Shown: positions 1 to 61,860, counted from the first letter of the stretch. The stretch: DNA of 64,000 nucleotides from Naegleria gruberi (GCA_000004985.1 GG738871.1); one strand, 5' to 3'. Notes: a model not told the origin generated them from the letters alone. Numbers and translations: made by a program.

Positions 1-1700
1 GCGGTCAATTCTGTGAAATTCCAAAATGTAATGGAACAATGCAAGGTGATAATTCAGTTTGCTCAGGACATGGTTCATGTGTTGGTGTTGACCTTTGTAA
101 TTGTAATTCAACTCACTGGGGAGGTAAATTCTGTGAAATTCCAAAATGTTTTGGAGTATTAGCCAATGAATCTAATGTTTGTTCAGGACATGGTTCGTGT
201 ATTGGTGCTGATTTGTGTTCCTGTAATTCCACATATTGGGGAGACGAGAACTGTCAAACAGCAAAATGTAATGGTATTTTAGCAACAGATGCAAGTGCTT
301 GTAATTATCAAGGAGTTTGTTCAGGAGCTGACTTGTGTGTTTGTAATTCAACATATGGCGGTCAATTTTGCCAAGTACCTAGATGCAATGGAACAATGCA
401 AGGTGATAATTCAGTATGTTCAGGACATGGTTCTTGTGTTGGTGTTGACAAATGTAATTGTAATTCAACATCACTGGGGAGGTCAATTCTGTGAAATTCC
501 AAAGTGTTTTGGAGTATTAGCCAATGAATCTAATGTTTGTTCAGGACATGGTTCGTGTATTGGTGCTGATTTGTGTTCCTGTAATTCCACATATTGGGGA
601 GATGAAAATTGTCAAACAGCAAAATGTAATGGTATTTTAGCTACTCAAACAAATAGTGTTTGTTATGGACATGGTTCTTGTGTAGATGCCGATGTTTGTA
701 ACTGTAATTCCACATATTGGGGTGGAGAATTCTGCAAATATCCAAAATGTTTTGGAATCTTATCCACAGAAGCAAATGCTTGTTCGGCACCAAACCAAGG
801 TTTATGTGTTGATGCAGACACTTGTGCTTGTAACTCAACTTATTGGGGAGATGAAAAGTGCCAAACATTCAAGTGTAACAATATTCTTTCCACGTCAGAC
901 TCTGTTTGTTATGGTCAAGGAGTGTGTGTAGCTGTAGATACTTGCGTTTGTAACTCAACATATGGAGGCCAATTTTGTCAAACACCAAAATGTAATGGTA
1001 CTTTGGCCGGGGATAACTTAGTATGTTCAGGACATGGTTCTTGTGATGGAGTTGACAAATGTAATTGTAATTCAACATATTGGGGAGGTCAATTCTGTGA
1101 AATTCCAAAATGTTTTGGAGTATTAGCCAATGAATCTAATGTTTGTTCAGGACATGGTTCATGTATTGGTGCTGATTTGTGTTCCTGTAATTCCACATAT
1201 TGGGGAGATGAAAATTGTCAAACAGCAAAATGTAATGGTATTCTGTCAACACAAACAAGTACTGTTTGCTACGGTCATGGTTCTTGTGTAGATGCCGATG
1301 TTTGTAATTGTAATTCCACATATTGGGGTGGAGAATTCTGCAAATATCCAAAATGTTTTGGAATCTTATCTACCGATTCTTCAACTTGTTCATTCCATGG
1401 CTTGTGTATTGATGCTGATTTGTGTTCATGTAACTCAACCCATTGGGGAGGTGAAAAGTGTGACATTCCAAAATGTAATGGAATTTTAGCAACAGATACA
1501 AATGTTTGTAATTATCAAGGAGTTTGTTCAGGAGCTGACTTGTGTGTTTGTAACTCAACATATGGAGGCCAATTTTGTCAAACACCAAAATGTAATGGTA
1601 CTTTAGCAGGTGATAGTTCAGTATGTTCAGGACATGGTTCATGTGACGGAGTTGACAAATGTACTTGCAACTCGACATATTGGGGAGGTCAATTCTGTCA
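1..1700 (+). repeat. Intragenic higher-order tandem repeat: a ~590-nt unit of six EGF modules, about 3 copies, near-identical at nucleotide level.
   Basis: Segments 110-270, 500-660 and 1090-1250 are almost identical (ggtcaattctgtgaaattccaaaatgttttggagtattagccaatgaatctaatgtttgttcaggacatggttc...). The block 1-360 recurs at 361-; protein blocks FCEIPKCFGVLANESNVCSGHGSCIGADLCSCNSTYWGDENCQTAKCNGIL recur three times. Confidence 0.7.
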
Positions 1701-4107
1701 AACTCCAAAATGTGATGGTATCTTAGCTTCCAATACTTCGACTTGTAATGGACAAGGTTCCTGTATCAATGCTGATGTTTGTATTTGTAATGATTACAAT
1801 CTTTGGGAAGGTAAATTCTGCCAAGTACCAATGTGTTACGGTAAACCACAAGGTGGATCTTCCACATGTAATAATGGAAATGGTACTTGTACATCTCCAA
1901 ATCACTGTTCCTGTAACTCTGGATATGTAGGCCCAGAATGTGAATATCCAGTTTGTTTCAATGTACCTAGCAATGACTCTTCAGTGTGTAACAATCGAAA
2001 CGGTACATGTATTTCACCTGATAAGTGTGCTTGTGAAAGTGGGTGGACTGGCGATAGTTGTCAAACACCAATCTGTTTCTCAATTTTGGGTAACTCTTCA
2101 GCTGTTTGTAGTCAAAGAGGTAGTTGTGTAGCTCCAAATTTTTGTGTTTGTAAGGATCATTATTATGGAGACGCATGTCAAAGAACTACTTGTTATGGTA
2201 TTGCTGATGATTCTAGTTCAACATGTTTTGGTCACGGTTCTTGTAGTGATTACAATACTTGTAATTGTTCATCAGGTTATGGTCCAGACAATTATTGTGA
2301 GCATCCAATATGTTATGGTTATTTAGCAAATGATACTAGAGTTTGTAACAATTCACGTGGTGTCTGTTTGAGTCCTGACGAATGTAGACCTTTGGACCCT
2401 GTATGTTTCGAAAAGGCAAAGAACGACAGTAATGTTTGCAGTGGTCATGGTAAATGTGTTGATTGGGATTATTGTGTTTGTAACACTTCAGATTATTATG
2501 GAGATCAATGTCAATATTGGAAATGTTTTACAAAGAATTACAACGCCTCAAATGTTTGTAATAACGGAAACGGTACCTGCTCATCTGTTAATAATTGTGT
2601 TTGCAACAGTGGATGGTATGGAAATGAATGTACAGTTCCAATGTGTAATGGAATTCTTGGTAATTCATCCCTCGTTTGTAACAATGGAAATGGTACCTGC
2701 TCCAAACCAGGTGCATGTCAATGTAATACTGGATATACAGGATCTGATTGTTCCATTCCAATTTGTTATGACAAATTAGCAAGTGACACAAGTAATGTTT
2801 GTTCAGGAAAGGGTTCTTGTGTTGCTAAGGATACTTGCTCTTGTCAAAACAAGTATACAGGTTATGAATGTCAATATGCCACATGTTATGGAGTTTCATC
2901 CAATTCTACAAGTGTCTGTAGTGGTAATGGTACATGTAACGGAGTTGATTCTTGTAATTGTTTATATGGTTATGGAGATTCTCAATGTAATGTTTTCAAA
3001 TGTTCCAATATTTTGGCTACTAGTAATAGCGTGTGTAGTGGAAGAGGTAAATGTTATGGAATTGATAAGTGTCAATGTGATACTGGTTACTATGGTCCTA
3101 ATTGTCAATATACCACTTGTAATGGTATTGCTGCTAACGACACTTCTGTATGTAATAGCAATGGTACCTGTACTGCTTATGAAACTTGTTCTTGCTCTGC
3201 TGATTGGTATGGCAAAAATTGTGACATTACTAAGTGTTACAATATCTTCTCAAATGATACAAGTGTTTGCAGTAGTAAGGGTAAATGTATCCTCAAGGAC
3301 AAGTGTGTCTGTACAGACATTAATTATGGTGGTTCTCAATGTGCCGATCCATACTGTTTTGGTTATTTGGCCGGAACTGTTGGAGTTTGTAGTGGAAATG
3401 GTCAATGTTTGGGAGTTAACTCTTGTAATTGTAATACTGGTTTCCTTGCCTCAAAGTGTCAATTCAAAACAATTAGTGGTATCTCTCTCACGTTCAATGC
3501 CTCTGCTGATTATGCCAATGAAACTCTCACCACCAAGGCAACTTTGTCAATTACTGACTCTTCATTCAGTACCTATTATGCTTCTACTAGCTTGAATGCT
3601 ACATTCTCATTTGTTTTCAATGGAGTTACATCAACATTCGACAAGATTCTCCCAGCCGGATCCAACAATGTTGAATTCATTCTTCCATTCTTCTACACTC
3701 AAAAAGGAACTGTTACCAGCTCTGTAACTCTCAAATTCACTGAAAGTACCACAACCATTACTGCAGGTCAAGCAACTGGTTCATCTTTAACCATTCAACA
3801 AAGAGTAATACCAACACCAACACCTACACCTATCAAATCATCACCAAAACCACAAGTTTCTCCAGCCAAATCCACCAACACTGTCAATCCAAAGGCCTCC
3901 ACTTCAACAACCACTAAGAGTGATTCCAATGTTGGAGGTGCCATTGCAGCTGGAGTCATTGTTCCATTAGTTGTAATTGGTGGAGGTGGTATCACTGCTG
4001 CCATCATTGCTGTTGTTGTCATTATGAAGAAGAAGGCCGCCACAGCAGCTGCCAGAGAACTTACCTATGCCACTCACTACGATGTTGAATTGGCTGAAGG
4101 TTACTGA
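1..4107 (+). CDS. EGF-like repeat type I membrane glycoprotein, family member C. 5-prime partial; enters the window in frame 3, shifts to frame 1 near 466-472, TGA stop at 4105-4107.
   Basis: About 35 tandem ~32-aa Cys-rich modules (CxxxGxCxxxDxCxCNSTYWGGxxCxxPKC, tenascin/EGF-like). They are followed by a ~170-aa Cys-free domain, a Thr/Pro-rich stalk, a hydrophobic helix GGAIAAGVIVPLVVIGGGGITAAIIAVVVI, and the tail KKKAATAAARELTYATHYDVELAEGY. The ORF 39..494 and the ORF 289..4107 are the same gene joined by a 1-nt insertion relative to sister repeat copies (compare 100-120 with 466-480). Confidence 0.75.
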
Positions 4108-27638: not shown

Positions 27639-30600
27639 ATGGTTACTGGAGGCAATCTTTCAGTATCTTGCTTTAAACAAGATGTAAAATCAGTTAGAGG
27701 CCTCATTGTCCTTCTCTTGTTGATTCTCTGTTTGACAACAATTGAGAAATGTTGTGGATATTACTACACAATGAATACTGTTGGTACCTTCACTTCTGGA
27801 ACCACCTTGTATCAAATGGACAAGTCCAAATTCTTCGCTAACAGATTCTACGTAGCAACAAGTGGAGGTCTTCAGTATTTCACTGTATCAAGTGGTGTGG
27901 CAAATCCAAGTAATTCTTATGTGTATAGTGGTGGGTTTCAAACTACCAGTATGGCAAATGTTGTTGTCAGAAGTACATCATCAAGTAAAGATGATGTTTT
28001 TTCTGGTACCATTAACACCTCCACTTGGAGGTATGGTTCAATAGCCAGTTCAACCACTACTGGTAATTCACTCACCAGTTGTGGCGTTATTGTTGCTGGT
28101 GTAAAACTCGATGCAAGCTCTACAACTTTTTCTGTGATTGGCAATGGTGTTGTGGGTACATTAACAATGACAACAGGTGGTAGTGCATCTTGTTCTGCAG
28201 TTACCTCATTTACAGGAGTTTCTGGCACAAGTACCACGCCATCTACTGATGGCACAGGTAGCGCAGCTACTGTTTACTCTAGTGGTACTCATGACATTAC
28301 CAAAAATTCAACATCTGGTGTAAGTATGAGAAAATTCAATTAATTAGATCTAACAACTGGCAGGTTTATTATTTTACTGAGGATTCAAAGATTAGAAAGG
28401 TTGTTTCAACTACTATCACAACTCTGGTAGGAGGAACTACTGGTACAGTGACAGATGGTACTCTCTCCTCTGCTACAGTTAAAAATCCAAGTTTCATGTC
28501 CATCTTGGGTGCAGGTGTAAGTTTTATTGCATTGTTATGATATATTAAACTGTTAACAGCTTGTATTTTCGGATACTGGTAGTAATAGAATTAGAGTTTT
28601 GGATACAGCCAATGAAGAAGTTGTTACTATTGCTGGTGGTGGCTCAACTACCCCATCAGGTACTGCTTCACTATCTGGTGCAGCAACAGGTTTTTCTTTA
28701 ACTAGCCCAAGAGGCATTTATGTGGACACTGATGACAGTATTTATTTTGTTGAAGGAATTTATGTTAGAAAGCTTGTCTATTCTTGTGAAGCAAATGAAA
28801 TTTATCAAGCAGGCTCATTCCCACCATGTGCTTGTAATACTACTGCTGGTTATGTGAGATCTGGAACTTCTTGCGTACCTACCTGTTCCAATTGTAATGT
28901 CAATCAAACATGTACTGGTCCAGAAACTTGTTCTTGTAAGAGTGGATATTCAGGAACAGATTGTTCTGCTTTTACCTGTTTTGGTGTAGCTCAAGATTCT
29001 ACATCTGTTTGTAATTCTAAAGGATATTGTGTTGCACCTGACACGTGTATATGTAGTGATACCTCCACTTTCTTTGGGTCAAATTGTAATGTGACTTATT
29101 GTAATTCTATTCCATCAACGAGTGGTAGTGTTTGTTCAGGACATGGAAGTTGTACTGATTATAATACTTGTACTTGTAGTGATACCAATTCATGGACAGG
29201 ATCTGATTGTGGAACACCTGTATGTGCAGTTGTGAGTGGAGGTGTTTGTTCTGGAAGAGGTAGTTGTACAGCTCCAAATATTTGCACTTGTAATGAACCA
29301 TCAAAATATGGTGGATCTTCATGTGAAATTCCAAAATGTAATGGAACACTTCAAGGCAATTCTGGTGTTTGCAATGGAAGAGGTTCTTGTATTGATGTTG
29401 ATACTTGTCAATGCACTGTTCCAACCTCTTGGGGTGGTTCATTCTGTGAAAAACCATACTGCTCTGGAATTTTACAAGGTGCAGCTGGTGTTTGTTCAAA
29501 TAGAGGAGTTTGTTCATCTCCTGATTCTTGTGTTTGTAATGAACAAACAAAGTATGGTGGTTCAAATTGTCAACTTGTCAAATGTGGAGGTTATTTGGAA
29601 ACAGACTCTGCTGTTTGTAACAAGAATGGTTCATGTATTGCTGTTGATACTTGTTCCTGTAATTCAAATTATGGTGGTTCAGATTGTCAATATCCAAAGT
29701 GTAATGGCATTGCTTCGAATAGTGGTAGTGTTTGTAATTCACAAGGATCATGTGTTGCACCAAATGTTTGTGTCTGTAATTCAAATTATGCTGGACCATT
29801 ATGCGAATATCCAAAATGTAATGGCGTAGCTTCCAATGATGCAAGTGTTTGCAATTCGAATGGAACTTGTACTGGTGTTAATACTTGTGTTTGTAATGTT
29901 AACTATACAGGATCATATTGTCAATATCCAAAATGTAATGGAATATCTTCCAATGATGCAAGTGTTTGTAATAACAAAGGTGGTAATTGTATTGCACCAA
30001 ATGTTTGTTCATGTAATTCAAGTTATACTGGTCAATTCTGTCAATTCCCAAAGTGTAATGGTATTGGATCCAATGATGCAAGTGTTTGTAATGCAAATGG
30101 TACTTGTATTGGAATTAATGTTTGTTCATGCAATTCAAATTATGCTGGTCCATATTGTCAATATCCAAAATGTAATGGTATTGCTTCAAATAGTGGTAGT
30201 GTTTGTAATTCACAAGGATCATGTGTTGCACCAAATGTTTGCGCCTGTAATTCAAATTATGCTGGTACATATTGTGATAAACCAAGATGTGGAACCTTTT
30301 ATAAGGGAGATGCTTCTGTTTGTAATTCGAGAGGTAGTTGTGATGCTGTTGATAGTTGTACTTGTAGTGATACATCTTCTTGGGGTGGTAATTTGTGTCA
30401 ATATCCAAAATGTAATGGTGTTCTTTCAAATATTGGAACTGTTTGTAGCAGTAGAGGTACTTGTCAATCTCCAAACAATTGTTCATGCACTGATCCAAAT
30501 TCATATGGTGGTTCATATTGTGAAAAAGCAAAATGTTATGGAATTCTTCAAGGAGATTCAAATGTTTGCAGTGGACATGGTACTTGTAGTGGTGTGAATC

Positions 30601-32542
30601 AATGTTCATGCAGTGCTGGATATGGAGGTGAACAATGTCAATATCCAAAATGTTTCAATATTTTGAGTAATGAAACAACAGTTTGTAACAATAGAAACGG
30701 TACTTGTACTGCACCTGACACTTGTTCATGTAATAATGGATGGACTGGAAGCAAGTGTGATGTTGCCATTTGTTTTTCAATTCTCTCCAATTCAACAAGT
30801 GTTTGTTCAAACAAGAGAGGTAATTGTGTCACACCAGATAATTGTGTTTGTAAAAGTCAATATTCAGGTTCTCAATGTGAATATACCACTTGTTCTGGAA
30901 TAAGATCAGATCAACATCGACAGTATGTTATGGAAATGGTCAATGTATTGATTATTTACTTGTAATTGTACAACTGGTTATGGACCATCCAATGTATGTC
31001 AATATCCAATTTGTGGTGGTTATTTAGCAAATGATACCAGAGTTTGTAACAATTCAAGAGGTGTTTGTTCCAAACCAAATACATGTAGACCATTAGATCC
31101 CGTATGTTATGGTAAAGCTCAGAATAATTCAATGGTTTGCAGTGGAAATGGAGCATGTGTTGATTGGGATTATTGTGAATGTAAAACTGGTTTCAATGGA
31201 AATGAATGTCAAAATTGGGAATGTTATGGAAAGAATTATACCAACTCAAATGTTTGTAACAATAGAAATGGTACCTGTTCATCTGTGAATAATTGTGTTT
31301 GCAACAGTGGATGGTATGGAAATGAATGTACAGTTCCAATGTGTAATGGAATTCTTGCTAATTCATCTCTCATTTGTAACAATAGAAATGGTACCTGCTC
31401 CAAACCAGGTGCATGTCAATGTAATACTGGATACACAGGACCTGATTGCTCCATTCCAATTTGTTATGGAAAATTAGGCAAGTGACACAAGTAATGTTTG
31501 TTCAGGAAGAGCAGAATGTATTGGTTATAACAAGTGTAATTGTGACACTTCCAAGTATAGTGGTTCACAATGTGAATATTTCAAATGTTTTGGTATTCCA
31601 TCAAATGATGCTTCAGTTTGCAGCAGAAACGGAACATGCTCTGGAGTGAATCAATGTTCTTGTAATTATGGTTATGGTTCTTCAAATTGTGACATTTTCA
31701 CATGTTCAAACGTTCTTGCCACCGATTCGAGTGTTTGCACTGGAAAGGGTGTATGTTATGGAATTGACAAGTGTTCATGTGATTCAGGATATTTTGGATC
31801 AAATTGTGAAATTATCTCCTGTTATGGAATTCCAAAGTCCAACAATACTGTATGTGGAGGAGTTGGTGAATGTTCACAACTTGATACATGTGTTTGTGGA
31901 AGCAATTATAGAGGATCAATGTGTGAATTATCTTACACCTCTTCATCTCAAGCAACACTTCAATTCAATAATACGAATGAATATGTGAATGAACAATTCA
32001 CAAGCATGGCCACTTTGACAATTAATAATCCTCTCTTCGGTCAATATTATTTGAGAAGAAGTGTTCAAGTTGTTGTTTCATTTGAAATTAATTCACAATT
32101 CAGTTATTCTGAAACACTTTATATTGAAAATGGAGTTTCATCTGTTTCATTAATGGTGAAATCGTTGAGTCAAACTGGTACATTGAAAGCATCTGCTCAA
32201 TTAATTGATAATAGTACATTAATTTCCATTTCAGATAGCATTCAATCTTCAAATAGCATTACAATTCAAAATAGACCTATTGTTGTTCCATCCACAACGA
32301 CATCCACAATCAAACCAACAACCTCTGCACAAACAAGTAGAGCTGTTATCGATACAGGAAGTAATGGTGGAGCCATTGCAGCTGGTATCATTGTTCCAGT
32401 GGCAGTTATTGGAATTGGAGGTGGTGTCACTGCAGCCATTGTCACAGCAGTTGTTTTGTTAAAGAAGAAGGCTGCTGCAGCTGCTGCCAAAGAAATTACA
32501 CATGCTCAACACGTCAATGTTGAACTAGCTGAAGGTTTCTAA
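27639..32542 (+). pseudogene. NHL-propeller/EGF-repeat membrane protein paralog A. Exons 27639..28319, 28364..28516 and 28560..32542; three frameshifting indels near 30913, 30956 and 31480 relative to paralog B.
   Basis: Same architecture as B (44914..49716). 28860-32542 is ~98% identical to 46030-49716 at nucleotide level, but reading requires frames 0, 1 and 2 (ORFs 28599..30965, 31132..31485, 31646..32542). Could be a recent pseudogene or assembly indels. Confidence 0.55.
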
Positions 32543-32791: not shown

Positions 32792-34560
32792 ATGCAACAA
32801 CAACAACCTCGCTCAATGATGACATTCATCTTCCATTTCATAATGACAATATGTGTCGTCGTCGTATCATTGATGTTGAATCAAAGTGGTGGTGTAAACG
32901 GAGCAGTGTATCAAGTGAGTGATGCGGTTACTTTGTGGAATACCTTTTCTAAACTACAGGCTGGTATGTACAAGACTCATGACCTATTACATATTATTTA
33001 ACATGGAATGTGCTTGATGATCGGTTATTATTATGGTTGGTGTTGTTTCACATATTGTGTGTGTGGCGCTTGTAATCTTTGTTACTTACATGATTTGCAT
33101 GCTTTTCATAATATCCATGATTGTGTATTTTAAATTTGACTGTGCTCCATATGTTTGGCCAACTTGACAATACTTTTGTGTGAAATTGTGTGTGTGAAAT
33201 GGATGGGTTGTTTGGTGTTTTGATGCTTTTGGTGTTGGTTTTTTTTGCAGGTGATGAAATGGTTATTAGACAAGGAACTTATTCTACATCAACTGGTGGA
33301 TCCTATTATAGACAATTTACATTGAAAGGAACTGAAAGTCAACCAATTAGAGTTTATGCTTTGAAAAACGAAACTGTGGAAATTAAGGGAGATGCAGCTG
33401 GTAGTCAAAATATTCTCAATTTTGATGTTGAATATTTTGTGATGGATAATATTGGGTTCTCACAAGGTAGTCGTGGATTGAGATTTTTAAATTCGAAACA
33501 TTCAGTTTATTCTAATTTGAGAGTTAAAAACACAGGAGATGTTGGTATTGCCATGAATGACGGAAATGCTATTTATCAAAACAATACTTTAAGATATAAT
33601 GAAGTTTCGTATACTGGAGGAACTGGTGAATGTTTCTATTTGGGTTGTAACAATGCTGATTGCAAATTCATTTTCAATTTATTGGAAAATAACTATTGCC
33701 ACCACACATCTACCACCTCCCAAGGAGATGGTATTGAAATCAAAGCTGGAAGTTATGGAAATCTTGTCAGAAACAATGTCATTCATGATGGAAAGTATCC
33801 AGGCATTACCTTGTACAGCACTTATGTGTCTGGTGGTGATGCAGCTGTTGGTATTGCTAATCCAAATATTATTGAAGGAAATATCATTTGGACAGTCGTT
33901 GATAATGGTATACAAGTGACAGGTAATGCAATTATTAGAAATAACATTATTTATAATGCAGGTGCTAGTGGAATTGCCATTCAAGTCAATCAAGGAACTG
34001 TCGAAAATGTCAAAGTATTGCACAATACAGTTGTCAAAGCAGGTGCTGCTTGTATTAGAGTGACAAATTCAGGACCAGGAATTGTCATTGCTAATAATGC
34101 TGCCTATTGTGAAGCTACCAATTCAATTTATATTGCTGCTGCATTGCCTGCTGATGGTGTCATTTCAAGAAATGTCATTCAGGGATCGACTAATGTTCAA
34201 GTTGCGAATGGAACTCTCAATATTGGTAAATTCACAACTGATTTCCAAAGTACTAGCGCCTTGCCATATAATGTTTTCCCAGTTACTTCCAGTAATGTGC
34301 TTGGAAAGGCAGATTCAAAGTATGCAACCACTTATGATTTCAATTTTAATACTAGAAATGGACCAACTTATGACTGTGGTGCTTATCAAGCTAATGGAGC
34401 TACTTCAAATCCTGGTTGGATTCCAAAAGCTGGATTCAAGACAACCACAGCTCCTACACCTAATACATCTACTAAGACTAATGGTGCTGCTGTTGGAAGC
34501 TTTGTGTCAACTCTTGCACTTGTTTTCGTTGCACTTGTGGTAATGTTTACTTTGAATTAA
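32792..34560 (+). CDS. Secreted right-handed parallel beta-helix (pectin-lyase-fold, PbH1-repeat) protein with C-terminal hydrophobic GPI-signal-like tail. Exons 32792..32963 and 33251..34560; intron GTATGT...TTTTTTGCAG.
   Basis: Signal peptide MMTFIFHFIMTICVVVVSLML. Beta-helix rungs NNVIHDG, GNIIWTVVDNGIQVTGNAIIRNNIIYNAGASGIAIQVNQGTVENVKVLHNTVVKAGAACIRV, IANNAAY. Thr/Pro stalk, then terminal VSTLALVFVALVVMFTLN. Confidence 0.6.
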
Positions 34561-34798: not shown

Positions 34799-36712
34799 CT
34801 AATGTTGCAGGTAATCATGATGAACACGACCAGCAGGCATGATCATGTCAACCTTAAAGTTAAAGGCACCAACAACTTGCTTGACAGGGAGATCACTAAT
34901 TGGAGCGTTAACGTGAGGAATGAGTGCAAGCTTAGCATCTCCCTTATAGGCACTAGTTACATTTAGGTTGGCATGTTCCATTCTAACCAATTGAACAATA
35001 GCTGGATCACCACGAACGTCAGGAATATGCTTTAAGAATAATTGAGGAGTGGACAAGTAGGAAACGACATCTTCGAAAGCCATTCTTTCATACTTGTAGG
35101 ACATTGTACCAGTTGCAACTCTGCAACCATTGCAATCCAATGTACCCTTCAAAGTATCTTGAGTTGGAGCGAATGTAATACCATCACAGAACTTTTGAGG
35201 TAAACCAAGACATTCTCTACCATATGTAATTGGAGATGAAGAATCCAAGAAACTCATAGTGTTAAAGTGGATAGAGTTACCTTCGTTATCAGTACATGGA
35301 ACAATCAAGTCAACCTTGTAATAACTACCAATACCAGTACCATGAGTATTGACGAATTGAAGAATTACAATATTGTCTTCATTTGGAGTGAGTTGATCTG
35401 GAATCTTTTCCAACAAAGATTCTCTATCTGTTACATATTTGATAACCATGTATTCTCTGTCTTGGAGCTTTGAAGCAGATGGCTTATAGGATGGACATGT
35501 TACTGGCATTGCCAATGACTCTTCTGTAATTTTCTTTTCGGTAAAGATTGATCTGTATTGACCTGGTTGGACAAACATTTGGTGGAATTTTTGAGAAACA
35601 GCCTTATTTTCTTCAGTTGGTTCGAGATAATCATGCAAAACATTACCGTATGGCAACAAGATATCAGCCATCATGTGTTTACCTTGAATAACCTTCTTGA
35701 CAGGCAAATCAGCAACTGGTGCATTAACATTTTCAACCAAGTGCAATCTAGCTGGACCTTCAAAGGCAAAATGCAACTTTTTAACTTGCAAGTTATATGA
35801 AACAATTTGGGCAATCTTTGGCTTGAAATCAACATCAGGAATAATCTTCAAATTAATATTGGTCTTTCCCATTGATTTCAAAACAGTATCATGATCAAGT
35901 TCAGTGTGTTTGTAAGCCATTGTACCTTGAGCAACAGTTTCTCCCTTATATTTCATAACACCAACAACTGTATCTTGAATACATTTCATGGATGGGTGAG
36001 CATGTTTTTTCTAATTATATGACACAATTAATATTTCCATTTTGCTTCCGAGATTTAAAACTTACAGGAAAACCCCAAATTTCACGACCTTAATATTTAC
36101 AAGTTATTGACACAAATTAGATAATTGTTGAAATACTACTTACCAGCAGCAATTGGTGGTTCAATATCCAAATACATTTGGAGAGTAAGATTAACTGATT
36201 CTCCATTATAAGTGCAAGGAATGACAATACCTGATTCGGAATACTAACAATTAATTCATCATATATATTAAATTCTCAAAATCATTAATATCACTTACAG
36301 ATCCGAAACCAGAAGAGTCTGGCATGTTAATCCTTTAAAGAAGTTAATATCATTTCTGTAATTAAAAACACATACCATTCATACAATACATGACTATTTT
36401 CATTAGGGACAAGTGGTTCTGGAACCAAAGCACGAAGAGCTTCGGCATCAGTTTCATACGTAACAATAAAGTATTCTCTGTTCTTGAAAAAGTATGGTCC
36501 TAATATCAATATTATTGTAACCGATGAAAATATATGAAATAACAATGATGAATGATAACAAAGATGACAAACTTACCTCTCGGATAAGAAGGAGACATAA
36601 TAGGAGTAGAAGGTAATCCCAAAATCATATCCTTGGTAAATTTACCCTTCTCTTTACCTGGTTTAATAATTGATTTGAATGCTCTAGCAAAAACTGAAGG
36701 TGAAACTCTCAT
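34799..36712 (-). CDS. Tandem double acetoacetate decarboxylase-like (ADC/MppR family) protein. Five exons: 36577..36712, 36376..36499, 36300..36333, 36144..36243, 34799..36010. The start may instead be the upstream ATG at 36772.
   Basis: Domain 1 ([96 protein letters not shown]...DLPVKKV...DYL) aligns along its length with Clostridium ADC ([36 protein letters not shown]...NEPAIAVGRE...DLPVKEI). Domain 2 ([39 protein letters not shown]...DLPVKQV...DYLQH) is a second complete copy. Confidence 0.7.
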
Positions 36713-41574: not shown

Positions 41575-42765
41575 TTATTGCTTGTAGGTATCAACTGGCT
41601 TCTTATAGGTATCGACTGGCTTCTTGTAAGTGTCAACCTTCTTTGGTGGCTTATAAGTATCGGTCTTCTTTGGTGGCTTGTAGGTATCAACCTTAGTACA
41701 AACTCTCTTCTTCTTAGCACAGACACTCTTATCAGCGTGCTTTCTACAGACTCTCTTACCTCCAACAAAGTTGTACTTGACACAGATCTTTTGACCTGGT
41801 GACTTCTTGACACAATGCTTCTTGAATGATCTCTTAATACATCTTGGCTTCAATGTCTTGTATTGAGTACAATATGGCTTGGCAACATAGTCACAACAGA
41901 ACTTATCTTCTTTGTAAGCCTTACAAACTCTAACCTTTTCTTTGAGATCACAGAATTTGCTTGGAGTCCACTTGGTACAGAACTTGGTCTTTTGCTTGGC
42001 AACGCAATACTTTCTTTGGACAACCTTAACACATTTCTTTTCATAACCAATCTTCTTGGCAAACTTGACGTTTTCATATTTGGTACAGGTCTTCTTCTTG
42101 GCATATTCAACACAAATGGTACGATGCTTCTTTTCCAAAACTTGCTTATAGTAATGATCGATCCAACCCTTGTAATGTTTCTTACTGACTGGAACCCATT
42201 TAGCAACAGTTCTTGAGAGTTTCTTATATTTGGCACAATATTGATGAACAGAGTATTTGGCACATCTCTTCTTATGGAAATACTTAATCTTTGGAACGTA
42301 GGTTTCAGCAGCACATCTTGATGACTTGTCATACTTGGTACAAATGAAATGATAAGCATATTCATCACAAGCATTATTCTTTCCGTGGTGTTTGCACAAT
42401 TCCTTCCATTCATATTTGGCACAAATCTTGTGCTTAGTAACCTTTGAACAGAATTGCTTATAACCGTGACCCAAACAAATCTTTTCAGCTTTGCTGTACT
42501 TGTCACACTTGTGAGTCTTCTTATATTCCAAACATTTACCCTTTCCAACAGTCTTCCAATCGCAGCACTCTTTCTTGGTACCAACCCATTCATAATCAAC
42601 ACATTTACCTTGGATAGTCTTGTAGTGAGTACACTTGTTGTAGCAATACTCTTGATGATCAGAATAGGTATCAACCTTCTTGGAAGGAGCAGGAGCTGGG
42701 TTTGCAAGAACCATACTTGCTGCCAATACACTCAAAACGATTGCAATGATTATACTTGTTTTCAT
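41575..42765 (-). CDS. Secreted, highly basic Lys/Cys/Tyr-rich repeat protein with C-terminal KPPKK(T/V)DTY / KKPVDTY repeats.
   Basis: Signal peptide MKTSIIIAIVLSVLAASMVLA. More than 20 Cys in recurring (K/H)xC(x)KY motifs (CDKY, CAKY, CTKY, CVEY, CTQY). Tail is VDTYKPPKKTDTYKPPKKVDTYKKPVDTYKKPVDTYKQ. Single 396-aa ORF. Confidence 0.6.
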   Translation of the reverse strand: MKTSIIIAIVLSVLAASMVLANPAPAPSKKVDTYSDHQEYCYNKCTHYKTIQGKCVDYEWVGTKKECCDWKTVGKGKCLEYKKTHKCDKYSKAEKICLGHGYKQFCSKVTKHKICAKYEWKELCKHHGKNNACDEYAYHFICTKYDKSSRCAAETYVPKIKYFHKKRCAKYSVHQYCAKYKKLSRTVAKWVPVSKKHYKGWIDHYYKQVLEKKHRTICVEYAKKKTCTKYENVKFAKKIGYEKKCVKVVQRKYCVAKQKTKFCTKWTPSKFCDLKEKVRVCKAYKEDKFCCDYVAKPYCTQYKTLKPRCIKRSFKKHCVKKSPGQKICVKYNFVGGKRVCRKHADKSVCAKKKRVCTKVDTYKPPKKTDTYKPPKKVDTYKKPVDTYKKPVDTYKQ

Positions 42766-44913: not shown

Positions 44914-47900
44914 ATGAAACTAGTGAGCTTTCCCTATCATTTGTTGATTGCTGCTTGTGTAGTGTTACTTCTTGGCAAAGTTAGTGCATGGAGATATTCT
45001 GTGAAAACTCTTGCTACAGGTCTAGGCAGTATTTCTCAAATTGTTGGCTCTCCAAAATATATTTATGTTACACTTGGCTCCAGTTCAAAGAAGATTTATG
45101 CCTACGATAGACAATTATTGGCCACTCAGTCTGTACAAACATTGCAACAAGTCCACGATATAACAGCATCATCAAACAATATTGGTTATATTGCTTATCA
45201 TGGCAATGATTCGAATGACGCTGAAGTGATATCAGTAGCTGGCAATAATTTTCCAAACAATGTGGGTTTGTACTGGTTTACATGCTCATCAACCTGTTCC
45301 ACTCCAACACCCTTCTCTTATAATATAAGGGTCTCAGGAATTAGATCCCTAGGAATTGAGAACTCAACTCCCAAACTTTACATAACAAGACAAACAGCAA
45401 TTTACACTGGCACTCCTTCAGCAAATGCTATTGTATCAACAACTGGAACAATCAATTTTAAAGCTTTCAATGATGTTGATTATATTGGCAATACAGTAAG
45501 TTTTAATTATTTTGCAAATAGGTAACATTGGTTTAGGTTTATTTTACTGACTCAGGTGGAAACCTAAAAATTGCAACAAGTTCAACACCATTAATCAGTG
45601 TAGGCACATTTAGTGATGGTGCCAGTGGTACTGCTCGTTTATCTTCAGGCACAACATTCATCTCTGCACAGTTCAATAAGGTATGTAGTTATGAACAATA
45701 TGTTGTTGGAATAATTTTAAAAGATTTTTATCTCAGACACTGGAAACAGTAGAATTAGACTTTATGATATTGCTACAGGAATTACAACTACAATAGCTGG
45801 TGATCCTTCTAAATCAACAGCTGGAACAACAACTTTCAGTTTATCCGACGTACCAACTAATTACAAATTCACACCAACAGGTATTTGGATTGATAACTCT
45901 AATGGTATCATTTATTTTGCAGACACCAGTACCTTGAGAGCTTTAGTTCCAACTTGTAACAGTACTACAGAAGATCAATCTTCAACTTACCCTTTCTGTA
46001 CTTGTAAAACTGGATATTCATTGGTAAATGGAGATTGTGTTGCATCCACTAGTTGTTCTCCAGGATTGTGTAATGACAATCAAACATGTACTGGCCCAGA
46101 AACTTGTTCTTGTAAGAGTGGATATTATGGAACAAATTGTGATAATTATGACTGTTATGGAACTCAGAAGGATAATCTTTCTGTATGTAATGGAAAAGGT
46201 GTTTGCGTTTCTCCAAACACGTGTATTTGCACCAATGCAAACTATGATGGCTTTAATTGTAATATTACAACTTGTAATTCTATTCCATCAACGAGTGGTA
46301 GTGTTTGTTCTGGACATGGAAGTTGTACTGATTATAATACTTGTGCTTGTAGTGATACCAATTCATGGACAGGATCTGATTGTGGAACACCTGTATGTGC
46401 AGCTGTGAGTGGAGGTGTTTGTTCTGGAAGAGGTAGTTGTACAGCTCCAAATATTTGTACTTGTAATGAACCATCAAAATATGGTGGATCTTCATGTGAA
46501 ATTCCAAAATGTAATGGAACACTTCAAGGCAATTCTGGTGTTTGCAATGGAAGAGGTTCTTGTATTGATGTTGATACTTGTCAATGCACTGTTCCAACCT
46601 CTTGGGGTGGTTCATTCTGTGAAAAACCATACTGCTCTGGAATTTTACAAGGTGCAGCTGGTGTTTGTTCAAATAGAGGTGTTTGTTCATCTCCTGATTC
46701 TTGTGTTTGTAATGAACAAACAAAGTATGGTGGTTCAAATTGTCAACTTGTTAAATGTGGAGGTTATTTAGAAACAGACTCTGCTGTTTGTAACAAGAAT
46801 GGTTCATGTATTGCTGTTGATACTTGTTCCTGTAATTCAAATTATGATGGCCAATTTTGTCAATATCCAAAATGTAATGGCATTGCTTCAAATAGTGGTA
46901 GTGTTTGTAATTCACAAGGATCATGTGTTGCACCAAATGTCTGCTCTTGTTTCACAAATTATGCTGGACCATTATGCGAATATCCAAAATGTAATGGCGT
47001 AGCTTCCAATGATGCAAGTGTTTGTAGCTCGAATGGTACCTGTACTGGTGTTAATACTTGTGTTTGTAATGTTAACTATACAGGATCATATTGTCAATAT
47101 CCAAAATGTAATGGAATATCTTCAAACGATGCAAGTGTCTGTAATAACAAAGGTGGTAATTGTATTGCACCAAATGTTTGTTCATGTAATTCAAGTTATA
47201 CTGGTCAATTCTGTCAATTCCCAAAGTGTAATGGTATTGGATCCAATGATGCAAGTGTTTGTAGTGCAAATGGTACTTGTATTGGAATTAATATTTGTTC
47301 ATGCAATTCAAATTATGCTGGTCCATATTGTCAGTATCCAAAATGTAATGGCATTGCTTCAAATAGTGGTAGTGTTTGTAATTCACAAGGATCATGTGTT
47401 GCACCAAATGTTTGCGCCTGTAATTCAAATTATGGTGGTACATATTGTGATAAACCAAGATGTGGAACCTTTTACAAGGGAGATGCTTCTGTTTGTAATT
47501 CGAGAGGTAGTTGTGATGCTGTTGATAGTTGTACTTGTAGTGATACTTCTTCTTGGGGTGGCAATTTGTGTCAATATCCAAAATGTAATGGTGTTCTTTC
47601 AAATATTGGAACTGTTTGTAGCAGTAGAGGTACTTGTCAATCTCCAAACAATTGTTCATGCACTGATCCAAATTCATATGGTGGTTCATATTGTGAAAAA
47701 GCAAAATGTTATGGAATTCTTCAAGGAGATTCAAATGTTTGTAGTGGACATGGTACTTGTAGTGGTGTGAATCAATGTTCATGTAGTGCTGGATATGGAG
47801 GTGAACAATGTCAATATCCAAAATGTTTCAATATTTTGAGTAATGAAACAACAGTTTGTAACAATAGAAACGGTACTTGTACTGCTCCTGACACTTGTTC

Positions 47901-49716
47901 ATGTAAAAATGGATGGACTGGAAGCAAGTGTGATGTTGCCATTTGTTATTCAATTCTCTCCAATTCAACAAGTGTTTGTTCAAACAAGAGAGGTAATTGT
48001 GTCACACCAGATAATTGTGTTTGTAAAAGTCAATATTCAGGTTCTCAATGTGAATATACCACTTGTTCTGGAATAAGATCAGATCAAACATCGACAGTAT
48101 GTTATGGAAATGGTCAATGTATTGATTATAATACTTGTAATTGTACAACTGGTTATGGACCATCCAATGTATGTCAATATCCAATTTGTGGTGGTTATTT
48201 AGCAAATGATGCCAGAGTTTGTAACAATTCAAGAGGTGTTTGTTCCAAACCAAATACATGTAGACCATTAGATCCCGTATGTTATGGTAAAGCTCAGAAT
48301 AATTCAATGGTTTGCAGTGGAAATGGAGCATGCGTTGATTGGGATTATTGTGAATGTAAAACTGGTTTCAATGGAAATGAATGTCAAAATTGGGAATGTT
48401 ATGGAAAGAATTATACCAACTCAAATGTCTGTAACAATGGAAATGGTACCTGTTCATCTGTGAATAATTGTGTTTGTAACAGTGGATGGTATGGAAACGA
48501 ATGTACAGTTCCAATGTGTAATGGAATTCTTGGCAATTCATCTCTCGTTTGTAACAATAGAAATGGTACCTGCTCCAAACCAGGTGCATGTCAATGTAAT
48601 ACTGGATACACAGGACCTGATTGCTCCATTCCAATTTGTTATGGAAAATTAGGCACTGATACAAGTAATGTTTGTTCAGGAAGAGCAGAATGTATTGGTT
48701 ATAACAAGTGTAATTGTGACACTTCCAAGTATAGTGGTTCACAATGTGAATATTTCAAATGTTTTGGTATTCCATCAAATGATGCTTCAGTTTGCAGCAG
48801 AAACGGAACATGCTCTGGAGTGAATCAATGTTCTTGTAATTATGGTTATGGTTCTTCAAATTGTGACACTTTCACATGTTCAAATGTTCTTGCCACCAAT
48901 TCAAGTGTTTGCAGTGGAAAGGGTGTATGTTATGGAATTGACAAGTGTTCATGTGATTCAGGATATTTCAGTACCAATTGCGAGCTATTTTCTTGTTATG
49001 GAATTCCAAAGTCCAACAATACTGTATGTGGAGGAGTTGGTGAATGTTCACAACTTGATACATGTGTTTGTGGAAGCAATTATAGAGGATCAATGTGTGA
49101 ATTATCTTACACCTCTTCATCTCAAGCAACACTTCAATTCAATAATACGAATGAATATGTGAATGAACAATTCACAAGCATGGCCACTTTGACAATTAAT
49201 AATCCTCTCTTCGGTCAATATTATTTGAGAAGAAGTGTTCAAGTTGTTGTTTCATTCCAAATTAATTCACAATTCAGTTATTCTGAAACACTTTATATTG
49301 AAAATGGAGTTTCATCTGTTTCATTAATGGTGAAATCATTGAGTCAAACTGGTACATTGAAAGCATCTGCTCAATTAATTGATAATAGTACATTGATTTC
49401 CATTTCAGATAGTATTCAATCTTCAAATAGCATTACAATTCAAAATAGACCTATTGTTGTTCCATCCACAAAGACATCCACAACCAAACCAACAACCTCT
49501 GCACAAACAAGTAGAGCTGTTATCGATACAGGAAGTAATGGTGGAGCCATTGCAGCTGGTATCATTGTTCCAGTGGCAGTTATTGGAATTGGAGGTGGTG
49601 TCACTGCAGCCATTGTCACAGCAGTTGTTTTATTAAAGAAGAAGGCTGCTGCAGCTGCTGCCAAAGAAATTGCACATGCCCAACACGTCAATGTTGAACT
49701 AGCTGAAGGTTTCTAA
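44914..49716 (+). CDS. NHL-propeller/EGF-repeat type I membrane glycoprotein, paralog B (intact). Exons 44914..45495, 45546..45680 and 45724..49716.
   Basis: Signal peptide MKLVSFPYHLLIAACVVLLLGKVSA. NHL-like blades (VYFTDSGGNLKIA; IFISDTGNSRIRLYDIATGITTTIAG; GIWIDNSNGIIYFADTSTL). About 35 EGF/tenascin-like Cys modules, a Cys-free ~170-aa domain, Ser/Thr stalk, helix GGAIAAGIIVPVAVIGIGGGVTAAIVTAVVLL, and tail KKKAAAAAAKEIAHAQHVNVELAEGF. Introns GTAAGT...TTTAG and GTATGT...AAAAG. Confidence 0.8.
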
Positions 49717-55635: not shown

Positions 55636-57103
55636 TTATAGAAAATCATTTTCCTCTAAGGCACAAGGTGCTGCGTCTTCGGCAATGTGAATATGAGACT
55701 TTCCTCCAGGTCCATTCAGTTGCATCTTATTTCCACAAATTGTTGATGTCTTGGTTGATTCCAAAACAATGGCATTTCTGGTGTGTCCACTAAAGACACT
55801 TCTCTCAATTCTCATAGAGGCCTCACCTTTGCAGAGAATGGCATTTCCATCATTCTTTTGAAAGAGACTTTTGGTTACTTCACACAGAGTGTCATCTTCG
55901 AGTCGCATTCCATGAAGTTTGTTAAATTCCACGTGGCACTCGGTCATGATTAATTTGGGAGGATCACAAATTGGTTTCTTACTACCAGTCGATGGCAGTG
56001 GCGGTGGAGGTGGTTGAGTGTTTGATTCAATTGATGCTGTCGAAGGAGTTGTAGAAACTGCTGCATCAGTTGTGTTTTTCACAGGTGGAATGTATAATCT
56101 ATTCTTTACAGTAACACCAACTCCATAACTTGCTCTCAAATGGACATGTTGCAGAGTGCATGATCCTGAAACAATTTCCAAACACGACGCCGATTCATAA
56201 AATAAAATACTATCCCTAGCAGCATTCTGTGTGAGTGTGACATGTTCAAATTTGACACTTCCCCCACCATCCAATAAACGTTGTTTTTCCAATTGTTGAA
56301 TTGTTAAATTCTCATTAAAAGAGTCCACTCTCAAAATTGATTTTGAGCTATCCGAAGAGGCAATATGTACAAGTGATGAATCTGGATAAACTCCACGAAT
56401 GGTGAGTGGTTTCTTAATGACAACTGTTTCAGGAACTTTGTAAATTCCACTTCTCAAAACAACATGGTCTCCCTCCTTTGCAAAATCAACAGCTCTCTGT
56501 ATATCATGAAAAGTACAATCTTCACTAAAATCTGGATCAACTACATGAAGTCTGTAATCTGAATTCCTAACAGATGAATCATTAATTTCCTTTATCCAAT
56601 TGCTTTGGTCATTTTCATCCTCACAAGCAAGATAATAAGTACGATGAGGTGAAATGATTTTAATACCAAATTTCTTTTTGTAATTCAATTCGGCTGCTTG
56701 ACAAGTTAATCCCTGAACATTAATCATTCCTTTGGGTTTGGTATCTTTCTGTGATACATAGTAATATAATTTTCCTCTATTTTTTAAATTATTAATAAGT
56801 ATTGTAGGTTAAAGATGAGAATATAGTATTCGAAACACATACTGATGCAAAATACATAATCTCTCGTGCCATGTTTTAATGGAACCTCCTCGTTTGGTCT
56901 ATTCATTTCAAATATATTATGAAAATGTATAACGGTTATTATTATTGAAATTGTTCCGAATACAAATTGTTTCGAATAAAACCTACCAGTGTTCCTACAA
57001 AGTCGTGGTCTCTCATCAATTCAGAAGCAGATACTTTGGGTGGTTCCTCCACTATCTCCTTCCACTTCTTACCAGCCTTCTTTACTTTATCTTGTGATGA
57101 CAT
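55636..57103 (-). CDS. PH-domain protein with C-terminal right-handed beta-helix (PbH1/CASH-like) domain. Exons 56987..57103, 56843..56898 and 55636..56776.
   Basis: MSSQDKVKKAGKKWKEIVEEPPKVSASELMRDHDFVGTL/TKRGGSIKTWHERLCILHQ/GKLYYVSQKDTKPKGMINVQGLTCQAAELNYKKKFGIKIISPHRTYYLACEDENDQSNWIKEIN is a complete PH domain split by two introns (88 and 66 nt). Then repetitive beta-helix rungs and a Pro-rich linker PPPPPLP. Confidence 0.65.
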
Positions 57104-60689: not shown

Positions 60690-61860
60690 ATGATCGAGAG
60701 TTTATTACAATTTGCATCAGAGAATTGCAGAAATGACAAACAAATTGTCTTGACAGCTGTCAAACAAGATTGTTCCACTTACAAATTCGCTTCTCCTAAA
60801 TTAAAACTGGATTTTGAGATTTTACTTTCATATCTTGAGAAAAATAGACATTCATTTAAGATGATTGTACCAAATTCAAATAGATGACAAGGAATTTATA
60901 ATGTCAGCAATCAAAATGGGATTTTCTTTGAAATATGCTTCTGATAGATTGAGGGATGATAAAGAGGTGGTTATGGAAGCAGTTTCGAATGGATATGAAT
61001 TGTTTAATGTATCTGATAGGTTGAAATCTGACAAGGATGTCGTGTTAAAAGCACAACAAACTTTTGAAAAGGCATATTTGTTAGCACCACAACATTTAAA
61101 ATATGACTTTGATATTAAGGCAGCAAGATATGAATTTAACACAAGAGGAATTGCCAAATGTCATGACAGAAATCAAATTTTAAGATTAATTGAAACAAAA
61201 GGATATTTATTTAGTTATGCCAAACCGAAATTCAAAAATGATAAGGAAATTATTTTAAAATTCATTGAAATTAATGCGTGGCAAGCTGTAGAAAATGCAT
61301 CACCTCAATTAAAAGATGATTCGGATATAATTAGGAAATCAGTGGAGAACTGTGGATTAACTATTCGATTGGCATCCGAAAGATTGAAAAATAATAAGGA
61401 AATTGCACTCATAGCAATGAAGACGAGTGCTTGTAAGGCAATAATGGATATTTCTGATAATCTTAGACAAGACAGAGAGTTTTTAATAGAGGTTGTTTCG
61501 TATGGATCTATTCTAAATGAACATTCCTCAATCGAGTTGAAAAGTGACAGGGAATTAAGGAATCGGTAAAATATAGAGGAGTTGATATACAGTTTGCATC
61601 CAATGAGTTGAAAAATGATAAGGAGCTAATATTACTTGCTGTCAAAACTCATGCATATGTTGTCAGTTTCATTTCCCGTAATTTCCTCTTTAATTCGGAT
61701 TTTCTATTGGAATTATTGAAGCTTAATCCAAATATTGTGAAATTCTTGGATGGCCACCATCGAGATTCAGAATTTGTACATTTAGCTACGAAAGGAGATT
61801 CTCTAATTTATGCCTCGAATAGATTGAGAAATTTAAAGGAATTTGTTTTCGAATGAATGG
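60690..61860 (+). pseudogene. Second DUF4116-repeat gene, read through two frameshifts (near 60870-60890 and 61565-61585).
   Basis: Repeats LQFASENCRNDKQIVLTAVKQD, DKEFIMSAIKMGFSLKYASDRLRDDKEVVMEAVSNGYELFNVSDRLKSDKDVVLKA, NDKEIILKFIE, NNKEIALIAMK, QDREFLIEVVS, then (frame shift) KYRGVDIQFASNELKNDKELILLAVKTHAYVV. The repeat phase is preserved only if 1-nt indels are assumed. Confidence 0.45.

Follow-up and report, generated by a model that had tools for sequence, protein, structure and literature searches.

The question raised by this locus is whether a gene of Naegleria gruberi that couples NHL-type propeller blades to a long array of EGF modules is a relative of the animal teneurins or a receptor assembled independently, and what its product might do. 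The gene, here called gene A, lies on the plus strand at 44914-49716 of a 64,000-nucleotide stretch of assembled DNA (GCA_000004985.1 GG738871.1; hereafter the window), which has 31-38% G+C and closely packed genes and is eukaryotic in character. An initial annotation, made from the DNA sequence alone, had described a type I membrane protein with a teneurin-like combination of domains and suggested that it belongs to an independently assembled receptor family. Gene A is an intact three-exon gene encoding a type I membrane protein of the propeller-EGF type. We hold its architecture, and its placement in a family of Naegleria proteins, with high confidence.

The span given in the initial annotation is exact at both ends, with the start codon at 44914 and the stop codon ending at 49716. 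The three exons join into a frame of 1572 codons for a product of 1572 amino acids. The unspliced open reading frame from 44914 ends at 45525 and an open reading frame in another register covers 45934-49716; the gene A protein therefore exists only after splicing. The splicing model is adopted because of three features. Removal of intron 1 restores the frame and joins NT to VYFTDSGG, and removal of intron 2 joins FNK in frame to IFISDTGNSRIRLYD, both junctions yielding NHL-like strings; both intron positions are common to gene A and a paralogue in the window, paralogue B; and the spliced head aligns without gaps across both junctions to a protein of N. lovaniensis (P0030).

The protein has only two hydrophobic segments (residues 1-26 and 1513-1547), the first belonging to a signal peptide that ends after VSA and before W, and the second followed by KKK. 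The topology is therefore type I, with a signal peptide and a single C-terminal transmembrane (TM) helix as originally proposed. From the N-terminus, the signal peptide is followed by a 294-amino acid head, a four-cysteine knot, 25 six-cysteine EGF modules with one truncated four-cysteine module among them, a 118-amino acid cysteine-free domain, a 29-amino acid Ser/Thr/Pro linker, one TM helix, and a 26-amino acid tail. There are 28 N-x-S/T sequons for N-glycosylation, all in the ectodomain.

The stalk contains 158 of the 161 cysteines; their number is even and their pattern regular, and all can pair. The N-terminal knot (residues 320-347) precedes 25 complete modules of 35-37 amino acids (29 in the first), which are separated by invariant four-residue linkers and thus repeat with a period of 39-41 amino acids. 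The proposed EGF array is matched far beyond chance by Pfam EGF_2 (5.5e-57, 190 bits, cut-off 22.1), EGF_TEN (4.3e-49, 167.7 bits, cut-off 65), and EGF_Teneurin (6.3e-34, 116.1 bits, cut-off 24.3). The original count of ~35 modules was too high, the number being 25-27 when the truncated module and the N-terminal knot are considered along with the 25 complete ones. The modules had also been called tenascin-type; judged by their length and their long C1-C2 loop, they are teneurin/EGF_2-like and not of the 31-amino acid tenascin type. They are not calcium-binding EGF modules either: gene A has no D-x-[DN]-E-C start, no Asx-hydroxylation consensus, and no match to Pfam EGF_CA.

The truncated module is kept at the equivalent position of the stalk in paralogue C, a second paralogue in the window, and in the relatives P0030, P0006, and P0011, and could serve as a hinge or a processing site. 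Modules 18-24 of gene A are colinear with modules 15-21 of P0006, the truncated module falling between 18 and 19, and this order, truncated module included, is kept in both P0006 and paralogue C. Among the distal modules, best matches are out of order and some copies arose by recent internal duplication, modules 8 and 12 being 82% identical. The stalk therefore consists of a conserved base near the membrane and an expandable distal part.

A cysteine-free domain next to the membrane had been predicted at ~170 amino acids. The domain is present but shorter, at ~118 amino acids, and the linker that follows accounts for the Ser/Thr/Pro stalk of the initial annotation. An Ig-like β-sandwich is confidently predicted for the juxtamembrane domain: the AlphaFold2 model, built from five aligned sequences, is mostly β, with nine strands and one short α-helix over model residues 11-120, at a predicted local distance difference test score (pLDDT) of 73-91. 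The linker has pLDDT <50 and differs in length among relatives; scores for the linker, TM helix, and tail are low, as expected of an isolated chain. The TM helix (GGAIAAGIIVPVAVIGIGGGVTAAIV...) is rich in Gly and Ala and contains Pro. Together with the tail, it forms the most conserved stretch among the paralogues and foreign relatives. The tail pattern KKKA..A.E...A...[DN][VIF][ED]L..G[FYC] is kept in gene A, paralogues B and C, P0003, P0005, P0006, and P0008.

The evidence divides the head of the protein into two halves. A phmmer search of the Protein Data Bank (PDB) with the single gene A sequence matched the NHL domains of SOQ1 (5e-8), NHLRC2 (4e-4), and Thin (5.5e-4), spanning head residues ~154-295 only. 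By hhalign, the gene A head aligns to four canonical Naegleria heads of the family described below with a probability of 97% (E 5.6e-11), and a three-sequence profile of degenerate heads (gene A, paralogue B, and P0030) does so at 98.2% (E 3.3e-14). Against the PDB, this profile matches SOQ1 (1.9e-13), NHLRC2 (1.1e-11), teneurin-2 NHL (1.1e-6), and Thin (2.9e-6), with the NHL domains of teneurin-2, -3, and -4 ranging from 1e-6 to 2e-4; these matches are confined to profile positions ~188-307. The only homologues retrieved by a first search with the gene A head were a metagenome fragment at 98% identity and a single NHL protein of bacterial origin (32% identity). All NHL matches thus lie within the last ~125-140 residues of the head, which amount to three blades, and a blade hidden Markov model likewise finds three blades in gene A and three in paralogue B. 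The head of paralogue B comes near the Pfam TEN_NHL threshold, with 25.7 bits (cut-off 27.1). By these profile matches, the last three blades are NHL-type. The initial annotation had reported NHL-like blades with the motif xFxDxGNxRIRxxD; this holds for the last three by PDB profile and hhalign, while the exact motif occurs once in gene A, as IFISDTGNSRIRLYD, and the Pfam NHL model stays below threshold.

We infer from size, end motifs, and family context that the gene A head forms a six-bladed propeller in which blades 1-3 are degenerate. The head, at 294 amino acids, compares with 344-350 in the canonical six-blade heads of the Naegleria family. It opens with WRYSVKTLATGLG, which resembles the canonical first strand (VKYKISTLAGIG in P0008 and VKYIITTVAGKG in P0012), and closes with the family junction L.P.C (...YFADTSTLRALVPTC). 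Several results weigh against a complete propeller. Pfam NHL (PF01436) scores 13 bits on gene A against a cut-off of 20 (E 0.11), and the full protein has no match to NHL or TEN_NHL at E<=0.01. The first ~165 residues of the head match nothing significantly among NHL blades and PDB chains, and hhalign of this N-terminal half against its own C-terminal blades and the canonical heads gives a best E of 0.017 at 2.7% probability, which is not significant. AlphaFold2 applied to the exon 1 fragment only, with a three-row alignment, gives pLDDT 29. The N-terminal half also has an apparent PDB match (2.6e-7) to a polyprotein labelled "chloroplast PsbY", which was rejected as chance, arising from a short LLATQS..QQV.D..A..N.G.IA string multiplied by repeats in the target.

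These results could also mean that the head is a novel domain of ~165 amino acids fused to a three-blade NHL remnant, on which it packs or which pairs with a second chain. Every profile method detects only three blades in gene A, paralogue B, and P0030, and the N-terminal half is without a PDB match, as such a fusion would predict. Three NHL blades alone, however, cannot close a propeller, and the size of the head relative to canonical six-blade heads, the N-terminal strand motif and weak blade 1 alignment (the nonsignificant E of 0.017) that resemble those heads, and β-hairpin-like patterns such as YIYVTLGSSSKKIYAYD all speak for further blades. We consider the fusion unlikely and retain the degenerate six-bladed propeller.

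The family to which gene A belongs was delineated through its membrane-proximal end. Gene A, paralogue C, and three metagenome fragments supplied the sequences for a profile of the juxtamembrane domain, TM helix, and tail. A word-index search with this profile returned only three metagenome fragments, and an exhaustive HMMER search of 1.84 billion representative proteins returned 25 at E<=1e-3, including P0006 (7.5e-45), P0007 (2.4e-20), and P0008 (6.4e-17), with canonical family members ranging from 7.5e-45 to 1e-5. The six annotated long hits that were looked up are all from N. lovaniensis or N. gruberi, and a seventh, P0021, comes from ENA and falls in a cluster with N. gruberi P0029; the remainder are ENA fragments or short sequences and were not looked up. 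Among the matches identified, only Naegleria proteins and a small number of metagenome fragments appear to have the module. The Naegleria proteins are annotated as "hypothetical", "EGF-like domain-containing", or "Teneurin NHL domain-containing".

Most of these proteins have a strong NHL or TEN_NHL match (NHL 1.1e-62 in P0006) followed by EGF_TEN arrays; P0011 has only EGF matches in Pfam, and neither it nor P0030 has a Pfam NHL match. Gene A has the juxtamembrane/TM/tail module and the EGF array that define this NHL-EGF-juxtamembrane-TM family. It also has homologous last three blades and the family head junction, ...[YF][FI]...[RK].L.P.C, with no detectable counterpart of the first ~165 residues. 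The canonical members share the order of parts and the juxtamembrane/TM/tail module with gene A. Unlike gene A, they have classic NHL propellers as heads (Pfam NHL 1e-62 to 3e-9), and the head of P0006 contains blades enough for about two propellers. Their EGF modules number from 1 to >24, compared with 25 in gene A. Gene A and P0006 are colinear over residues 100-1571 (1,470 residues) at 37% identity.

Among full-length matches, the closest to gene A is N. lovaniensis C9374_011222 (P0030, 1239 amino acids), with 48% identity over 56% of the query. Like gene A, P0030 has a degenerate head directly after the signal peptide, with a W.Y start, an ...IYFAEG..K.L.P.C end, and no Pfam NHL match, and it has the truncated four-cysteine module, the juxtamembrane domain, the TM helix, and a KKKAAA tail. 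It is shorter, with 16 regex-complete modules as opposed to 25, and its tail ends in ...VDVELGN. The sequence identity is too low for a confident call of orthology. An environmental protein fragment, P0004, resembles the C-terminal part of P0030.

A further group, from N. gruberi (P0029), N. fowleri (P0042), and N. lovaniensis (P0047), resembles gene A in its N-terminal NHL head, teneurin-type EGF array, and single-pass type I layout. In place of the 26-amino acid tail of gene A, these proteins end in a protein kinase domain, and in the juxtamembrane region they match the family profile weakly (5.5e-4). From their domain content, they look like receptor kinases with an ectodomain of the same kind. 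Naegleria EGF arrays also occur with other heads and modules. Two metagenome contigs carry related sequence: L001 (ENA ERZ929261) a 98%-identical copy of gene A exon 1 (P0001), and L002 (ENA ERZ2098899) P0004 with the family juxtamembrane/TM/tail module, along with genes for a P450 and a 2-oxoacid dehydrogenase E2. Close relatives of the organism that is the source of gene A therefore occur in environmental samples. A literature search for the Naegleria NHL-EGF family, which included six locus tags, found no paper on it in the library covered; the one publication that mentions both Naegleria and teneurin deals with polymorphic toxins and has no bearing on this family.

The window contains three members of the family: gene A and paralogues B and C. 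Gene A and paralogue B are 96% identical in DNA from ~46269 (A) or ~29093 (B) to the stop codon, where the similarity ends. Their heads are ~33% identical, and their flanks are unrelated (~50% identity). By sequence comparison, this pattern is the signature of gene conversion or chimeric duplication in which the stalk was kept and the head changed. In the shared part, the ratio of nonsynonymous to synonymous differences (pN/pS) is 0.23, and the stalk is therefore under purifying selection. Paralogue B has three one-base indels that break the frame, at ~30913, 30956, and 31480, and could be either an assembly error in a repeat or a very recent pseudogene. Paralogue C, with a juxtamembrane domain 41% identical to that of gene A, has one frameshift near nucleotides 470-480. 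Between gene A and paralogue C, identity reaches 88-94% for modules 20-21 (A) and 17-18 (C), as opposed to ~50-60% for most other modules, which suggests patchy gene conversion. The family may thus diversify by changes of head while gene conversion keeps the stalks alike, of which genes A and B would be an example.

Taking these results together, we favor, as reasonably probable, a reading of the gene A product as one of a family of type I surface glycoproteins restricted to Naegleria and near heterolobosean relatives, a propeller-tipped receptor with a role in adhesion or recognition. For receptor function taken by itself, the chances appear about even. In the proposed mechanism, the propeller head would be the ligand-binding tip. 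If an EGF module spans 2.5-3 nm, the disulfide-locked array would hold the head ~60-80 nm off the membrane. The conserved, small-residue TM helix may mediate lateral association, and the conserved tail motif may recruit a cytosolic adaptor for sorting, internalization, cytoskeletal linkage, or signal relay; signaling or sorting through the tail is conjecture. Likely roles would be adhesion to, or recognition of, substrate or prey. To the points already raised against the head are added two others: no recognizable signaling domain was found in the 26-amino acid tail, and the frameshifts in both paralogues may mean that the local family is partly decaying, or that the assembly is imperfect in repeats.

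The protein might instead be a passive structural coat, such as a glycocalyx component, a surface spacer, or a cyst-wall or matrix protein, in which the array of EGF modules and its glycans would do the work and the head would bind no specific ligand. The 28 sequons and the Ser/Thr/Pro linker would suit such a role, as would a long, repetitive array with duplicated and homogenized distal modules, a degenerate head lacking most NHL signature residues, and a very short tail. A spacer, however, would not need a TM helix and tail that are the parts most conserved across species. Every family member keeps a head, and the heads have diversified; sister architectures bear kinase domains, and the stalk is under purifying selection. 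Because of the kinase-bearing sisters and the pattern of head diversification, we prefer recognition or adhesion and regard a passive coat as improbable.

Much less probable is a proteolytic receptor in the manner of Notch, in which tension applied to the head by a ligand would uncover a cleavage site close to the juxtamembrane domain or to the truncated module, and cleavage within the membrane would then free the tail. The layout invites the comparison, with an EGF array followed by a membrane-proximal folded domain, an unusually conserved TM helix that is rich in Gly and Ala and contains Pro, and a conserved irregular module in the stalk. Pfam, however, finds no LNR, NOD, or GAIN/GPS signature, and a 26-amino acid tail without a nuclear or signaling motif would be a poor effector.

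Teneurins (Ten-m/Odz) have type II topology, a large cytoplasmic domain at the N-terminus, and eight EGF repeats, two of which have a free cysteine for dimerization; they also have TTR, FN-plug, and YD shell domains and a toxin-like C-terminus. Gene A resembles them in combining an EGF array with NHL blades and in having the EGF modules nearer the membrane, and this spatial order is what stands of the originally proposed teneurin-like combination. Unlike teneurins, gene A has a cleavable N-terminal signal peptide and a sole TM helix 26 residues from the C-terminus. Its 25 modules and two four-cysteine elements, with an even 158 cysteines, do not correspond to eight repeats with free cysteines. 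No YD/RHS shell, FN-plug, TTR, or toxin-like domain is matched by Pfam anywhere in the protein, and there is no leftover sequence to hold them. Every teneurin-specific part is therefore lacking, and membership fails on each defining feature examined, namely chain orientation, the YD shell, the toxin domain, and a set of eight EGF repeats in which some cysteines are unpaired. Descent from an ancestor in common with animal teneurins that already joined EGF and NHL, which the strong EGF_TEN and EGF_Teneurin scores, the teneurin NHL matches of the head profile, and the placement of NHL farther out than EGF in both proteins would favor, is effectively refuted as far as membership goes by the opposite orientation, missing domains, and module and cysteine counts, and since SOQ1 and NHLRC2 match the head more strongly and a bacterial NHL protein matches it too, the similarity is generic to NHL and EGF. 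The missing teneurin parts support the independent assembly of a receptor family suggested by the initial annotation.

Two other systems bear comparison. Members of the LDL-receptor family are type I proteins in which a six-bladed YWTD propeller and EGF modules are followed by an O-glycosylated juxtamembrane linker and a short tail that contains a sorting motif, and by analogy the LDL-receptor ectodomain is the nearest functional counterpart of the gene A protein. The LDL-receptor propeller is YWTD/LDL-B rather than NHL and is embedded between EGF modules, whereas that of gene A is terminal; the LDL-receptor family has calcium-binding EGF and LDL-A modules, whereas the EGF modules of gene A are non-calcium-binding. 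Gene A has no match to Pfam Ldl_recept_a or Ldl_recept_b, which rules out an LDL-receptor relative, and NPxY is absent from its tail. Tenascins are secreted, oligomeric proteins with 31-amino acid EGF repeats followed by FN3 repeats and a fibrinogen globe; membership of gene A is ruled out by its 35-37-amino acid modules, the lack of Pfam matches to FN3 and fibrinogen, and its TM anchor.

Table. Coordinates of gene A, its parts, and its paralogues in the window, and accessions of related Naegleria proteins.
Feature	Position	Strand	Description
Exon 1	44914..45495	+	residues 1-194; signal peptide and N-terminal part of head; ATG in A-rich context, GTAAGT donor at 45496
Signal peptide	44914-44988	+	residues 1-25, within exon 1
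Intron 1	45496..45536	+	41 nt, GTAAGT...TTTAG
Exon 2	45537..45680	+	residues 195-242; NHL-like blade 4 and start of blade 5
Intron 2	45681..45723	+	43 nt, GTATGT...AAAAG
Exon 3	45724..49716	+	residues 243-1572 and stop codon
Three demonstrable NHL-type blades and stalk junction	45493..45957 (introns included)	+	residues 194-320, ending ...YFADTSTLRALVPTC
Cysteine-rich stalk	45955..49098	+	residues 320-1367; four-cysteine knot, then 25 six-cysteine EGF modules, by regex and module table
Truncated four-cysteine EGF module	48187..48261	+	residues 1064-1088, ...CRPLDPVC
Cysteine-free juxtamembrane domain, predicted β-sandwich	49099..49452	+	residues 1368-1485, 118 amino acids
Ser/Thr/Pro-rich linker	49453..49539	+	residues 1486-1514, 29 amino acids, 52% S+T+P
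Transmembrane helix	49540..49635	+	residues 1515-1546, GGAIAAGIIVPVAVIGIGGGVTAAIVTAVVLL, small-residue-rich, Kyte-Doolittle peak 2.37
Cytoplasmic tail and stop codon	49636..49716	+	residues 1547-1572, KKKAAAAAAKEIAHAQHVNVELAEGF, 26 amino acids
Paralogue B	27639..32542	+	different head; stalk, TM helix, and tail like gene A
Paralogue C	1..4107	+	5' end cut by window edge; EGF array, juxtamembrane domain (41% identical), TM helix, tail
Canonical NHL-EGF-TM proteins, N. lovaniensis			XP_044553224.1 (P0006), XP_044543576.1 (P0008), XP_044556015.1 (P0016), XP_044547808.1 (P0012)
Canonical NHL-EGF-TM protein, N. gruberi			XP_002674235.1 (P0007)
NHL-EGF receptor-kinase-like proteins			N. gruberi XP_002676784.1 (P0029), N. 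fowleri P0042, N. lovaniensis P0047; ~2,150 amino acids

Other genes in the window encode proteins of several kinds. Two are DUF4116-repeat proteins, at 23358-25070 on the minus strand (Pfam 3.7e-67) and at 60865-61569 on the plus strand, the latter judged by eye only. Two are right-handed β-helix proteins: that at 33190-34560 (plus strand; Pfam Beta_helix 1.2e-17) has a hydrophobic C-terminal end and may be a surface protein, and that at 55636-56727 (minus strand; Beta_helix 1.8e-8) has a subthreshold PH-domain match at its start (23.3 bits, cut-off 25.1). A 396-amino acid protein encoded at 41575-42765 (minus strand) looks secreted, has a very high content of Lys and Cys and a terminal run of short tandem repeats (DTYKPPKK/DTYKKPV), and lacks a Pfam match. 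A tandem pair of acetoacetate decarboxylase (ADC) domains is encoded at 34799-35989 (minus strand; Pfam 2.8e-73, in two stretches). An Rfam scan over the whole window found no RNA families.

Gene A is not a new kind of protein, as the genomes of N. gruberi, N. lovaniensis, and N. fowleri already carry annotated, uncharacterized members of the family. Its novelty in databases is modest, with homologues deposited as hypothetical proteins and all domain types known. Three features are of most interest: heads that are swapped while the stalk undergoes conversion, a TM helix and tail that are highly conserved, and an N-terminal head region left without a domain assignment. The teneurin-like spatial order, with EGF modules proximal to the membrane and NHL beyond them, has been built separately in a distant eukaryotic lineage with the opposite orientation of the chain. 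A bolder proposal, which we advance as speculative and rather doubtful, is that the three linked genes form a head-swapping receptor repertoire: divergent propeller heads would set specificity for prey, substrate, or self versus non-self and would be shuffled onto a stalk-TM-tail cassette kept uniform by conversion, with the TM helix and tail coupling all of them to one signaling or phagocytic partner. If true, this would be a protist analogue of receptor families with variable ectodomains, made from NHL and EGF parts and independent of animals. One species of the genus, N. fowleri, is a brain-eating pathogen, and the means by which Naegleria amoebae recognize and stick to prey, substrates, or host cells are poorly understood. 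With its distal binding head, rigid and very long stalk, conserved anchor and tail, kinase-bearing sisters, and diversification of heads alongside homogenization of stalks, the NHL-EGF family is a plausible candidate for a role in Naegleria adhesion and recognition.

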